Positions 5,161 to 45,612 of a DNA stretch of 64,000 bases are shown piece by piece. The notes beneath the pieces were generated by a model. That model saw only the letters and a list, made by a program, of their open reading frames with translations. It had not been told where the DNA came from and ran no database searches. Position 1 is the stretch's first letter. Each line of letters opens with the position of its first letter. The position numbers were made by a program, and so were the translations under genes. This stretch comes from Eledone cirrhosa (lineage: Eukaryota), in assembly GCA_964016885.1 (NCBI GenBank), contig OZ024743.1, positions 187,674,001-187,738,000 on the forward strand, in the 5' to 3' direction.

Positions 5161-6039
5161 TAAATATAATGTATGGGTGTCTGTGCATTTGGCAATATCT
5201 ATAGGTGTGAAAAGGAAAAAAAGAAAATATTGCTCAATTGGAAAGAGAGCAGAATTATTAAGTTATTTATTTATGTTCAAACATGGAACAAAAACGCTAC
5301 CCAAAGGTTTTAAGTCCCAATATTGACCACACACCACAAATCAAAAGAGGCAGAAAAATTGTGACCTATCTTCAAGTGCTTATATGAGTTTGTAAGATAT
5401 AGTTAAAAGTAATGCATGCTACAAATGCTAGTTTACGAAAGAAACTATTATAACAAAGGGAAATAACTCCAAGATGAATATTTGAAACACAAGATAGTTC
5501 ACACATTAGTGTTTGTATGTTGTAGCAGAAGTATTGTATTATATGGTAGAATGTAATATAGAGATGGTAATATTTATTAAGGTATGGACTAGAGTAGGAT
5601 AGAAAGGGTATTATATTATGTAAGTGTGTAAAGAGAAACAGAAAGAAATAATATAATGGAAGTATATAAATCAAATTAAGGTGGTTGAAAATCAGTGGAA
5701 TTTGTTGAGTATTTTTACTTAGAAACCCGTTGGGTTTTGAGATGGAGGCCTCCTCTAAACATTTTGCTCTTTCAGTTCAAATAATTATTGTACAGAGATG
5801 ACAAACCTTGTAATAGTCTAAATTTCTCACTAAGACAAAGTTGACATCTCGAGATGACCATAAATAAATAATATATTTCTGCTCTCTTCTTGAATGAGCA
5901 ATGCTTTTCTTTTTCATTTTCACACCTATATATTTCTTCTATGTGGCTTTTTTGCACAGACCTTCAAATTTATTTCTACCCATTTTTTGAGCATTCTTCA
6001 GACTTTAGATATTGTTGTCACTACTACATATGGATCTAT

Positions 6040-8015
6040 ATGAGATTAACTATTCAACCAAAAACATACTGCCACCTACCAACATCTCTTACACCAAAAT
6101 GCTTCTCAAAAAATTATATTTTGTATATATATTGAGGTAGAAGGCTCTTAATTCAATTAAGTCTTAGCCCCATTTGAAGCTGGTCTGTTAGATATAATTG
6201 TGACCATAAAGTTTCATTAGTACCTTCCAGCATATAGTTGTAAAGGACATTAAAAATTCAAATCCACTAAGAATGTTCTTTTTATTTTCGGTCAAAACAA
6301 AAATTTCTATCAAATGGATAAAGAAATATATACAACCTTATACTTAATAACATACCCAATAAATAATAAAAAGCTAAACCTAACACCTATTATAAGATTA
6401 ATGATGAGGTCAAAGGTATTGCCATAAATTTCTAAATAGACAATAGAGTTGAATGTTTCGCAGAACGTGATACATTCATTACCCTGAAGGATCACAAACC
6501 CGATTTTACTAACATGCCTACCTGTAGGCTAATAAATCCTGCAAGGACAGAGTTAGGACTAACTAGTAAACATTTTTTAAGAGGCATCAAAACCTGTATT
6601 ATTAAAAACACCAATCTCTCATTGTGGAATAAAGTATTGTCATATCCTGGTTCACAGAAATCCCCTTTAAGAACAAGATCAAATTCACACAGTTTGATAT
6701 CATAGATTTTTATCCCTCTATTTCTAGGACACTTTTGAATAACACCTTAGACTCTGCTCGTTCTTTTGTATATATCAGTGTCATGGAATATGACCTTATA
6801 TTCCATGCCCATAGAACCCTCCTATTTAGTAATTGTATTACTTTGGTAAATAAAATCTGATCCTGATGATTCTTTTAATGTCTCCATGGGGTCCTATGAT
6901 GGTGCTGATGTTTGTAATCTTATCGGCTTATACATTCTTCACACCATAAAGTCTAAATTCTCCAACCACTCCTTTGGTCTATACCGTGATGATGGTCTTA
7001 CTTTTTCACATGACTGTAATGGACAGACTGTGAACAGATTCCATAAAAATTTAATTGACACCTTTCATGCACTAGGACTTAAAATTACGGTTGATACAAA
7101 TCTTACTAATGCAAATTTCCTTGCTGTAAACTTCGACCTAACCACAGCTTCATATAAACCACACCATGAACCTAAGGAAAAATTGAAATATATTAATAAA
7201 GCCTCATTCCATCCCCAGCTGTTTAAAAAAACCAACTAATTTCTAATATTAGTCATAGGATCACAAATCTATCAGCAACTAGGATGATTTTTGTTAAGGC
7301 TGTTTCTTACTACAACCAAGCCCTCATAGATAGTGGTTTTAAGGAAAAGAATTAAGTATACATCCAATCATCCCAACCCAACCATATTAAAAATGCTAAC
7401 AGAAAAAGAAGAATTATCTGGTTCACACCCCACTTTTCCCTTAAAGTAAAGACTAATGTAGGTAAGATATCTTTAAGATTTAATAGATAAACATTTCTCA
7501 CCACAACATAGATATAGTAAAATATTCCATCAAGATATTTTATTCATATGGATCGTCTATCCGATCAAAAATTACTGCAAAGTATAAATCTGATGTTAAT
7601 CCAATATGCTCTCGTAGGATTAAAGAGAACTTCCATCTCCAACAGAAATATCAAATCTGTTATGTATAACGCAGTGATAACACACCGTTTTACATGCATC
7701 TCACTCCTTACAATAATTGTTTCTACTTTAGGCACAAGGCCAGCAATTACCCAGTGCATTACTGGTACTTTATTTTATCGACCCCGTAAGGATGAAAGGC
7801 AAAGTCAACCTCGGCGGGATTTGAACTCAGATCGTAAAGGGACGTAACTATGCTGGAAAGCATGGCGTCCGACCCTCCACCGATACTGCCAATGGTTGCA
7901 AGAGATGTTATCTCTGTCTTACTGAGAAATTTAGAATATTACAAGGTTTGTCATCTCTGAATAATAATTATTTGAGCTCAAAGAGCGAAATGCTTAAAGG
8001 AGGCCTCCATCTCTA
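6040..8015 (+). pseudogene. PLE reverse transcriptase + GIY-YIG endonuclease, frameshifted, interrupted by a SINE and a deletion
   Basis: ORFs 6514-6705 and 6886-7239 (YRDD catalytic motif) are pieces of one RT; CxLCLxEK GIY-YIG tail at about 7903-7930. Confidence 0.85.
7712..7893 (-). mobile_element. tRNA-headed SINE family A (central GCCTTTCATCCTTACGGGGTCGATAAAATAAAGTACCAG, Meta-domain-like)
   Basis: B-box GAGTTCAAATCCC; near-identical copies at 46738, 50580, 56705, 58831, 63152 and 63349. Confidence 0.88.
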
Positions 8016-9359
8016 AACACAACTACTTGCTAAGTGGAAATTCTCAACAAATTTCACTGATTTTTCAACCAAATTAATTTGATTTGAATACTTTCGTTAT
8101 ATCTTTTCTTTCTCTTTCCACACTTACATAATGCAACACACATTCTATACTACTCAATTCCATAACGTAATAAATATTACCATCTCTATATTACATTCCA
8201 ACACATATCACAAAACTTCTGCTACAACATACAAACACTAACATGTGAACCATCTCGCTTTTTAAATTTACATCTTTGAGTTATTTCCTTTTGTTATAAT
8301 ACATGTTTTCGTATACTGGCATTTGTGGCATGCATTACTTTTAACTATAGCTTATAAACTCGTATAAGCACCTGAAGATAGGTCACACTTTTCCTGCCTT
8401 TTGTATTCTGGAGCTGTGGTCATTATCATCATTACAATTTATCATGTTATTAGTTATTTTTCTTGTATAGTTAGAGTGATATCTGTTATGCAACATTGCA
8501 GGAGTGTAAAATTATCTAATAGATGGTAGTAAGTAGGTTTAATTACCAGGCATTACATATCTATTACATATTTAGAATGTTGTTATTAATTTTCTTTATA
8601 TAGACGGAATATAATTTGATATTAAATTTGAAGGTGTGGAAATGTTTTTAAGAAACAGTAGCAGGCACAGACAAGGAGTTAGCATTTTACATACAAAATT
8701 AATATATAAAAATACATAAACATATGGTTAGATAAAACATAGAAGCATTCGAAAATTTATTTAATTTATTAGAAAATTTCTGTTTCACTAATAAACAGGT
8801 GCTGATTTAATTTACAGTATCATTCTTTTAGTCAAATTGTCCATGTTACCAAGTAAGAAACTATTGTAAGTATTAATGACTCTAATTAAGTTGGACTTAT
8901 CAATCAAATCATCTATTAGATTTACAAAATGAATTAATTGAATGTTTGAAATATTTTTATTCAGAAATATAGTGAACCAATGATTTTCTCATTGGGAACC
9001 AGAAATAAATGATGCTACTGTATACCAAATGCAATATAAAATAAATAAATAAGTACTAAGGTCAATTTAATTGATTATAGGCTCCTCCCAATTTTGTCTC
9101 ATTATACCTATAATAGTAAAATCAGTTGCCTAAATACCAGTAATAATTTTTAATTTGGGAACAAGGATCATATTTTCAAAGAGAGGTCTGCAGTCATTAG
9201 AATTTCCTTATTTCATCAACAAATTAATATAAAAATGAAACCTTATAAGATTTTGAAATCAGAAATGAGAAGCACAATACAATATCCTACTATGTTAAGA
9301 CATATCTACCACTGCATTTGGCTATCTATAATTTGTAGCAATCAACAATACCAATGACA

Positions 9360-9560
9360 AAGCTTTTACATAGTCACTTGACCTGCTAGAATCAGAAGCC
9401 ACATCTTCCACAAAACACACCTTACTTTTTTGAATAAAATGTCACATTGGTTAATATAGTCCTAGGATCTTTAAAAATACAGGATTGACACAACTAAAAT
9501 GTACTTAATCAGAGATCTGCATGATTACGTTTGAACTATGGTTAAACAAAAAAAAAAAAA
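9360..9560. repeat. Unclassified dispersed repeat (SINE-like)
   Basis: cttgacctgctag...agcc..atct..c.caaa.cacac motif recurs at about 34855-34910. Confidence 0.45.
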
Positions 9561-44187: not shown

Positions 44188-44553
44188 TAAAATAAGGCGG
44201 CCGACTGGGGTAGAAGCTGCTAAATGTTCGGTCGCCCTCTTGTCTCTGATTTTCAGCCCTATGGATTTTGTCTATTATATTCCTTTGTTATATTTCGAAT
44301 ACCTGATGATGTCACCGGATTCATACTGAACCCGGTCATTGAAATGATCATAGTATAATAAACCTTTTAAGGAATTACACCAGTCCAGCTTCCTGTTATT
44401 TATAATAATTAACTCCGCACTTGCACCACCAACTACACAAACAAAGACAGGTGAGTTGCGTTACGCTGAGTGCTCTCCATAATATTACATCGAGGTTGAC
44501 CATACGGAATGACCAGTTCTATCCAGTGGTGAACCAACAAACCTAAATAAATA
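44188..44553 (+). mobile_element. Solo PLE-pLTR-like element in (TA)n with HHR, AATAAA and splice-donor consensus (family H5)
   Basis: (TA)n on both sides; HHR at 44299-44356; AATAAA at 44357; AG|GTGAGT at 44449-44456. Confidence 0.8.
44299..44356 (+). ncRNA. Type I hammerhead ribozyme with palindromic stem III
   Basis: AUAC CUGAUGA [UGUC ACCGG AUUCA UAC UGAAC CCGGU CAUU] GAAA UGAUCA UA GUAU. Confidence 0.83.
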
Positions 44554-44573
44554 TTATATATATATATATATAT

Positions 44574-45612
44574 AGGAAAAGAGTCAGGACCCCGACGGCT
44601 GAGCTTCGGCCGTTTCGACAGCTAGGTCTGAACTAACGCGGTATTGTTAGTACAGCATTAGCCTCATCTTCAAATCCCCTCACGATCGTGTGGTTAGACC
44701 TCGGCTGTAACATCTTTTCCTATTTGCCGACTAAGATAGAGGAAACCCCAGCATAATTAGGTAGAAGTAAAAATTATTTTTCTTTCTTCTTTTTTCTTAC
44801 TTTCTTCCCCTCTCTCTCCTCTTACTTTTCTTGTTTTCTTCATTAGTCGCACACTCCTTTACACTTAGGCGGCCCATCGCTTATATTCAACTTCATTCTT
44901 CCTTAGATTAATCCTAGTATTTCCACTCCTGTTATATCTACATAGCACTGGCTGAAAATATAGCCAGTGTTTTCTCTTTTTGTGGGAGTGCATCATTACA
45001 GACAATATTATTGATAAATTACCATTATGAGATGATGTTCTAGTGTTTTGGACGACCTAATAACTAAATTTTATTAATTTGCATTTTGGTATTAAATTAT
45101 ATTTGCCTTGCTTCCTGGCCAATTATTAATTCTATGATTTCTTTGTTTATCATAGGTTCCCAGCCCCCTTTAGAGATAGCTGTATAGAATTTCCTCTTAA
45201 TGCATGACTGGCCTGCAACCACAGGTCAGATTGTCATCTTACTCCCTCCCCTTGTTCTACAGGCAAGTTCAGCCACGCCCACCCCCACCTGCCAATATGA
45301 AGGAATTTAACTGCTTTTACAAAATCTTTGACCACTCCCCGTGATTGAAAAACAACTTTGAGAACTGTTTGACACAACACTACAGCACAGTGACACTTTC
45401 ATTGCATGCTCATATATGGAATTATCCCTTGATAAGTTCAGCCAGGCTATTGCTGTACTAACAATACCATGTTAGTTCAGACCTAGCTGTCGAAACGGCC
45501 GAAGCTCAGCCGTTGGGGTCCTGGCTCTTTTCCTATTACCCACTCTACTACCCAGTATCGAGTACTTTGGTACATTATGGTCCTCCTGGTTACTTACCAC
45601 ACTTCCATTGTT
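44574..45612 (+). mobile_element. PLE-like non-autonomous element with inverted partial pLTR and HHR (family H2)
   Basis: 44574-44664 is inverted with 45444-45534. HHR-like UUGAUAA...GCUGUC GAAA CGGCCGA AGC UCAGCCG U(C/U) GGGG at 45424-45520. Unpaired tail to 45612; (TA)n flanks. Confidence 0.82.

Follow-up and report, generated by a model that had tools for sequence, protein, structure and literature searches.

The geometry of Penelope-like element (PLE) insertions, their tails, their hammerhead ribozymes (HHRs), their targeting of (TA)n and their mobilisation in trans are in print already. RW, DKT and CxCX5C were used to define the Hydra clade in Craig et al. 2021 (PMC8557442), and for the Poseidon element PAc Frangieh et al. 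2024 (PMC11167929) found both target strands to be cut and extended, synthesis to depend on RNA 3' of the start (as far as +172, with the start at 111-118) and HHR cleavage to be dispensable, and predicted a dimer. The passages of these two papers that deal with the choice of two internal starts, and with the formation of tails and inverted copies, leave both questions open. Short non-coding HHR units have been proposed as PLE passengers (PMC7229834; bioRxiv 10.64898/2026.07.22.740005). Here we analyzed the coding PLE and the fold-back elements of a 64,000-nt window of Eledone cirrhosa DNA (contig OZ024743.1, positions 187,674,001 to 187,738,000), for which a reading of the letters alone, hereafter the sequence-only reading, had proposed a cis signal common to the tails of these elements. 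We find that this signal is a small hairpin with a covarying stem, that it occurs as a tandem pair in the 5' untranslated region (5'UTR) of Hydra-clade PLEs and that insertion ends lie a few nucleotides away from it. The fold-backs are probably head-to-head insertions of Hydra-clade PLEs in which the doubled 5'UTR hairpin anchors the reverse transcriptase (RT), synthesis starting about 5 nt upstream of each hairpin.

Results

A covarying hairpin in the tails of Hydra-clade PLEs

The five tail words cited in the sequence-only reading are all there, at 11883-11895 (+), 43406-43418 (-), 45553-45565 (+), 15871-15883 (+) and 5230-5240 (-), and every one of them is single-copy within the window. The pattern RGTATYRAGYAC, built from the very window sites that it then counts, matches the window 4 times versus 0.13 expected, and 4 matches were reached in 0 out of 100 shuffles. 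The tail word is the 3' strand of a bulged hairpin of the form RCTC-(variable stem-loop)-2-nt bulge-GAGY-ACT. No Rfam 15 model matches this hairpin over the five motif sites at E values up to 1, and a relaxed descriptor of it gave 15 matches in the whole window versus 8.8 in shuffles.

In the supplement of PMC8557442 the word of one window element (B, see below) has a single match, which lies in the coral consensus Hydra-2_Amil at 26 nt from its 3' end. Inspected by eye, the six Hydra consensi of its File S7 give the form GCTC-(stem-loop)-2 nt-GAGC-ACT, which is clear in 4 of them: the hairpin stands at the 3' end of Amil-2 and Ajap-2, doubled at the 5' end of Ajap-1 and at both ends of Crog (one with a lower-stem mismatch, one with GCCC/GGGC). 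Amil-1 and Obim have weak candidates only. Five 9-mers gave 7 matches in the supplement, a search that may miss words split by line breaks; four are Hydra ends, and the only 3 matches outside the Hydra file all lie in the interiors of other consensi.

The hairpin descriptor was fixed before independent DNA was fetched. The independent sample consists of 14 Hydra loci (L001-L014) from one scan of genome contigs, most likely animal DNA in bacterial genome records, that is, host contamination, as judged from their PLE content, their (TA)n and the near-identity of L010 to Hydra-2_Amil. L001, L012, L013 and L014 lack the relevant regions, and L011 has short ends only. Out of 20 HHR matches in the loci, 10 reach the hairpin 40-61 nt past the cut, 9 end at (TA)n after 31-54 nt and 1 reaches neither. 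When the right-hand word alone was searched, 13 of its 47 matches fell at most 160 nt past an HHR cut, a zone of about 2.5% of the bases. Its 5' partner strand is present in all 13 of these and in 5 of the 34 remaining matches, four of which are in 5'UTRs or tails; the fifth, at L005 6777, is an antisense match to the motif itself and was excluded as an instance. The sequence-only reading had made a fixed distance to the 3' end the touchstone of its signal, and the long ends of the loci lie 33-46 nt past the GAGY strand in 9 out of 9 copies measured.

The variable hairpins were aligned with an anchored script and a covariance model, MAFFT being unable to do so. In the first three upper-stem positions of 12 distinct instances, picked without regard to pairing, 31 of 36 cells pair, versus 20.6 after column shuffling, and none of 20000 shuffles reaches 31. 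In the model-fitted alignment 93.7% of cells pair (17-52% in slid controls) and 4 of 7 pairs show two-sided changes, including a lower-stem U-A to A-U, figures that are inflated by the relatedness of the instances and by the model fitting. Two window elements likewise differ by a paired change at the outer lower-stem position (ATTC/GAGT in A, ACTC/GAGT in C).

Models trained on the loci alone place the window tails at the top. A 3-instance locus model found 12 more instances in 63 kb, all of them also picked by the pattern scan, and in the window it ranked B, C and the tail of the coding PLE 1-3, the copy in the coding-PLE 5'UTR 5 and A 8, out of 17 matches. With a 15-instance model, B, C, the PLE tail, D and the 5'UTR copy took ranks 1-5 of 14; the rank 4 hairpin of D sits in an alternative register, and nothing was found in F, G or H. 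The proposal of a shared cis signal linked to the PLE machinery is supported in that the hairpin is conserved and covaries in its stem, follows the HHR at a fixed position and is where insertion ends map. It does not extend to two of the five structures listed in its support (24229 and 29855-31458), which are without the motif.

Insertion ends map next to a tandem pair of hairpins

In the five loci with an intact 5'UTR (L002, L003, L006, L008 and L009) two hairpins, hairpin 1 and hairpin 2, lie 62-68 nt apart upstream of the open reading frame (ORF). Tails in the loci measure 57-73 nt, to be compared with this spacing. Pair counts omit L010:81 and L010:5759 as duplicates of L005 families. In three locus families, the short ends that have a long reference copy first diverge from it 5-6 nt before hairpin 1 in 7 out of 7 cases. 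These offsets were taken from the printed alignment rows; the script gave -5, -1, -1, -4, -6, -5 and -5, the lower values being due to chance TA matches that extend some alignments. The short ends of the window elements C, D and E likewise first diverge 5-6 nt upstream of hairpin 1. In L009, which contains both UTRs, the long end falls 4 nt upstream of hairpin 2, and in the Crog consensus 6 nt separate the first base from the 5' hairpin that follows it. Several 5' junctions lie at or in hairpin 1, in L009 (3890), in L010 (62 and about 7310) and in element E. We also observed several Hydra families nested within the same (TA)n sites in L005 and L010.

The coding element of the window is a Hydra-clade PLE

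A near full-length but decayed PLE lies at 5855-8426 (+), with a 5'UTR, an ORF from 6030 and a 3' end inside the HHR. The sequence-only reading had labelled it Naiad-type, an identity that we rejected on domain order: a Hydra-type N-terminus starts at 6030, the RT runs to about 7540 and is followed by an endonuclease remnant at 7879-8034 (C-terminal order), and there is no N-terminal GIY-YIG endonuclease. On these sequence features the element is assigned to the Hydra clade. Profile positions 130-531 match 6331-7542 and positions 656-704 match 7879-8034, in a unit under 3 kb. The RWK site reads R-stop-K aligned to RWR/RWK, with R and W invariant in 64 relatives, and DKT and CxCX5C are kept in the 64 aligned relatives and decayed in the window copy. 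LKDHK, RLINP and GLYRDDGL have 11, 12 and 11 occurrences in the supplement of PMC8557442, of which two displayed places each are Hydra proteins. The endonuclease region is decayed and interrupted by a 180-nt dispersed repeat (7713-7893). This repeat has at least 7 close copies in the window and is 98% identical to 50581-50761.

An inverted, 5'-truncated copy of the element, carrying the tailed long end, lies at 5160-5850 (-) and is 84% identical to 7902-8426. A (TA)n run at 5128-5159 adjoins this left end, and the right end is without one. The tail holds hairpin 1 with a decayed upper stem at 5224-5252 (-), the rank 3 match of both models (E 0.24 and 0.34), and the copy also holds a decayed hammerhead of type I, its stem II being long, at 5290-5381 (-), recognised by eye where the strict descriptor failed. 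Hairpin 1 appears again in the 5'UTR at 5879-5907 (+), about 130 nt upstream of the ATG (rank 5 in both models). Because the 5'UTR (5855-5933) repeats the tail (80% identical to 5197-5279), the PLE tail is the start of the next unit. A decayed remnant of a further Hydra-type endonuclease was seen at 41223-41396 (+) (iE 4.5e-5).

Fold-back elements of the window

The fold-backs described in the sequence-only reading are real, reading outward with a one-armed tail in A, C, D, E and G. Inverted repeats were found at 11736-11857 (86%), 15721-15852 (71%), 24229-24483 (75%), 29850-30538, 30558-31440 and, for C, 44572-44664/45444-45536 (95%). Self-comparison groups A with B, C with D and E, the coding element with J, and G1 with G2, and leaves F by itself. 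The motif-bearing families thereby number three instead of five: 11736/43.4 kb, 44575/15721/20721 and the coding element. The strict hammerhead descriptor gave two matches in G and one in H; the decayed HHRs of A-D and of the coding element escape it and were recognised by eye. An Rfam scan of the window gave no hammerhead match, and its matches were mostly to miRNA models driven by microsatellites. A reading of A, C and D as miniature inverted-repeat transposable elements (MITEs) was ruled out by HHR polarity and one-sided tails.

Element A (11736-11918, +) is a fold-back centred in a decayed HHR core, with a tail that ends at (TA)n and a left arm that adjoins the (GAT)n tail of an element which we take to be an RTE LINE (long interspersed element). 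Its tail hairpin (11872-11901, +) has an ATTC/GAGT lower stem and a TTCG loop, matches the strict descriptor and is the minimum free energy (MFE) fold. Element B (43376-43510, -) is a long-end copy of the A family, 75% identical to A, and its hairpin (43400-43429, -) is the top match both of the covariance models and of the loci-trained score (E about 0.001-0.002). Element C (44575-45611, +) consists of a 90-nt inverted short-end arm, a body of about 850 nt, a decayed long-stem HHR at about 45424-45521 and a 75-nt tail, and is flanked by (TA)n on both sides. Its tail hairpin (45540-45571, +) has an ACTC/GAGT lower stem and is rank 2 in both covariance models; the left arm ends 5 nt 5' of the hairpin. 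Within C an AG-ending pyrimidine tract at about 45140-45160 (+) is possibly the 3' splice site of a retained intron. Element D (15721-15930, +) is an older C-family fold-back with a decayed hairpin, whose left arm stops 5 nt before the hairpin position, and element E (20721-20800) joins an inverted short-end arm of about 25 nt to the last 45-50 nt or so of a C-family tail between (TA)n runs. Element J (43184-43339, +), truncated at the 5' end and of the short-end type, is related to the 3' region of the coding PLE (68% identical to 5259-5417) and has a decayed HHR. A perfect 21-bp hairpin at 42253-42329, followed by a weak motif match (E 6.4), is possibly an old fold-back.

Short fold-backs equivalent to those of the window occur in L005 and L010, and these proved to be copies, truncated at the 5' end, of coding elements that lie in L010 and L011. 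A, B, D and E may have the same kind of origin and need not be the non-autonomous passengers assumed in the sequence-only reading; they are too short to show whether the full unit has an ORF. The stretch of about 850 nt ahead of the HHR of C has no Hydra (endonuclease) match despite arms that are 95% identical, and in 8 coding loci the protein match ends 129-241 nt from the HHR cut. Element C is probably non-coding.

G, H and F stand apart from the hairpin-bearing families. G1 (29855-30590; HHR cut at 30072, -) is a fold-back of a 431-nt non-coding HHR unit with ends about 55 nt apart and more than one unit in its left arm (1.17 units), and G2 (30598-31456; HHR cut at 30891, -) is a further fold-back of this family. 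For the region 29855-31458 the HHRs and tails described earlier are present, but the motif is not matched by the 15-instance covariance model. We rejected the G family as a bearer of the Hydra motif: its tail hairpin differs in sequence and begins about 14 nt past the short end. With its type I HHR and a longest stop-free frame of 77 aa the family looks non-coding; it is retrozyme-like by sequence and may be mobilised by another PLE clade. In element H (44186-44554, +), which is bordered by a (TA)n run on either side, the hammerhead descriptor picks out a complete HHR cut at 44352; the tail forms a long hairpin whose stem is GCAC/GTGC and which no covariance model matches. Element F (24229-24483), listed with the fold-backs in the sequence-only reading, has neither an HHR match with the descriptor nor a motif match with either covariance model; this inverted repeat is probably unrelated to the Hydra fold-backs, and a MITE is possible. 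To its left (23870-24180), a stretch between ATGT repeats contains a short ACTC/GAGT hairpin near 24155-24170 that no model matches.

Other repeats of the window

The window is repeat-rich animal DNA. A long terminal repeat (LTR) retrotransposon, presumably Ty3/Gypsy, with a 1232-aa gag-pol-like frame occupies 1-4880 (-), the same sequence standing at 153 and 4809. LINE families that we assume to be RTE lie at 11408-11737, 15100-15460, 24860-25220, 51797-52080 and 59646-59930; their 3'UTRs contain tandem repeats of 46-50 nt, and their tails are (GAT)n. A GC-rich fragment at 52514-53821 (+) is presumably a non-LTR RT, and to our eyes a fragment at 62591-62977 (+) resembles the C-terminus of a restriction-like endonuclease. 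Pfam gave no informative family for the window fragments or the predicted proteins P0001-P0003.

Discussion

We infer that the RT recognises and binds the hairpin. The template would be an RNA that runs from the HHR into the 5'UTR of the next unit, from a tandem or circular source, and the protein would nick (TA)n on both strands, probably as a dimer, the state predicted for Poseidon. A cDNA begun before hairpin 1 would give the short arm and one begun before hairpin 2 the long arm, with hairpin 1 copied as its tail; two truncated cDNAs joined head to head would give the fold-back. Element E, in which a short arm of 25 nt is joined to the end portion of a tail, would be the minimal product, and 5' junctions at hairpin 1 would fit stalling at a protein-bound hairpin. 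If each hairpin places one start, the spacing of the pair would set both the PLE tail and the one-tailed shape of the fold-backs. Any RNA carrying the pair could then be mobilised in trans. More tentatively, we propose that the pair may work as a two-hairpin RNA ruler, each protomer of a dimer sitting on one hairpin and starting cDNA 5 nt upstream, on opposite (TA)n strands, which would make it a portable signal of about 100 nt used across animal phyla.

Several observations limit the evidence for this scheme or weigh against it. When position was ignored, the strict hairpin descriptor gave 3 matches in the whole window versus 2.4 in shuffles, that is, no enrichment, and a loci-trained score of at least 12 bits gave 3 versus 2.5, the same as chance. 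With counts at chance level the window alone could not prove the motif; in the window its rank and position are informative and its raw count is not. E values below 0.05 were obtained in the window for B and C only (0.006 and 0.015 for C), and the 15-instance model misses A. Folding is marginal (z +0.6 to -0.7 for A, B, C and D), the hairpins of L008 and L009 fold otherwise in the MFE structure, and a count of G-U versus A-C of 1 versus 0 does not establish the folded strand. The loci are few and related to one another. As to the ends, the hairpin-2 rule consists of one direct case (L009) and the start of one published consensus, and where the sequence is TA-rich the position of an end is uncertain by 2-4 nt. 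The short arm of A stops 16 nt before the hairpin, beside the RTE tail; the right arm of the coding PLE ends within the HHR, and its long end lies about 63 nt beyond GAGC (extension P=0.016), where an intact hairpin 2 is missing; the 3' copy in L006 diverges directly after the HHR.

An unlikely though serious alternative is that the pair acts in the 5'UTR as a promoter or in translation and is passively copied into tails, the ends being set by TA-like priming microhomology. In 4 of 5 loci an ORF-type ATG follows hairpin 2 at 21-28 nt, hairpin 1 is the start of both L009 and the Hydra-1_Ajap consensus, short ends finish in TAT or ATT, and promoter motifs in PLE pseudo-LTRs are described in the relevant part of PMC3846280. 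This explanation does not account for an offset that stays at 5-6 nt in unrelated families where further TA-rich sites are close by, and a double-stranded promoter needs no covarying upper stem. Rather improbable is a role of the hairpin as DNA, in folded cDNA or donor, where the GIY-YIG endonuclease would read it and cut at a distance of 5 nt to resolve an intermediate. The discussion of tails in PMC8557442 attributes them to endonuclease resolution, PMC11167929 cites prior work in which the Penelope tail is required for endonuclease recognition, and the G-U and A-C counts do not settle which strand folds. However, Poseidon tail ends are RT starts on RNA, as reported in PMC11167929, and the long arm of L009 has no copied hairpin 2 although its end adjoins hairpin 2. 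We regard as very improbable that the fold-backs arose by self-priming on an antisense template, as argued in a section of PMC3846280, with the hairpin as a stop or boundary; the 5' junctions at or in hairpin 1 listed above favour a boundary role, but stalls there fit a protein-bound hairpin too, and two discrete outer ends with different offsets are explained more simply by two-strand priming, which was demonstrated in vitro for Poseidon. Chance, or functionless relics of common ancestry, would agree with the missing count enrichment and the weak folds but is hardly credible, because the hairpin, its spacing and the compensatory changes persist across animal phyla although the flanking UTRs of window elements and loci have no similarity.

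A hairpin that anchors the RT as proposed would give the RT group closest to telomerase an element for template recognition. The RNA ruler, if true, would explain the tail, its length and the one-tailed fold-backs together, and would let unrelated non-coding RNAs use a telomerase-related RT. With a doubled, covarying hairpin and ends 4-6 nt away, the mechanism is testable with the published in vitro assay, and curators can use the hairpin to mark Hydra ends and any passengers. The pair is apparently an undescribed cis element in a known class: no description of a hairpin pair turned up in literature searches or in the cited papers as far as their accessible parts go, while subscription papers, Repbase notes and supplements could hold one.

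The coding element of the window is like the Hydra-clade PLEs presented in PMC8557442 in having a C-terminal endonuclease, an HHR (decayed here) near the 3' end, a (TA)n target and an inverted truncated copy with an optional tail. The tails given there are 30-40 bp, and the passages on them describe no tail motif; the tails measured here, of about 50-87 nt, agree with the spacing of the pair. The Naiad PLEs of the same paper share (TA)n targeting, inverted copies and tails, but they have an N-terminal endonuclease and, in the description given, no canonical HHR. The HHR remnant of the window element is decayed. With Poseidon PAc (PMC11167929) our elements would share two internal RT starts that bound the tail. 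PAc differs in clade and sequence: its starts lie in an 'AC-rich stem loop', and the sections of that paper on the starts define no conserved repeated element. By eye, the Hydra word is absent from the PAc template in the form printed there. The same template shows small hairpins with bulges or internal loops, of other sequence, after AC-rich stretches, a hint that the rule may extend beyond Hydra.

The 431-nt non-coding HHR unit of the G family is like the non-LTR retrozymes; the papers on these name, in the parts concerned with mobilisation, no shared cis signal, and G is without the Hydra hairpin. Unlike the head-to-tail arrays of retrozymes, A-E are fold-backs. In LINEs and their short interspersed (SINE) partners, for example in the L2 clade, a small shared 3' stem-loop licenses copying by the cognate RT, also in trans; located 5' of the only start, it is copied every time. 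Unlike that stem-loop, the Hydra hairpin is doubled and stands 3' of its own proposed start.

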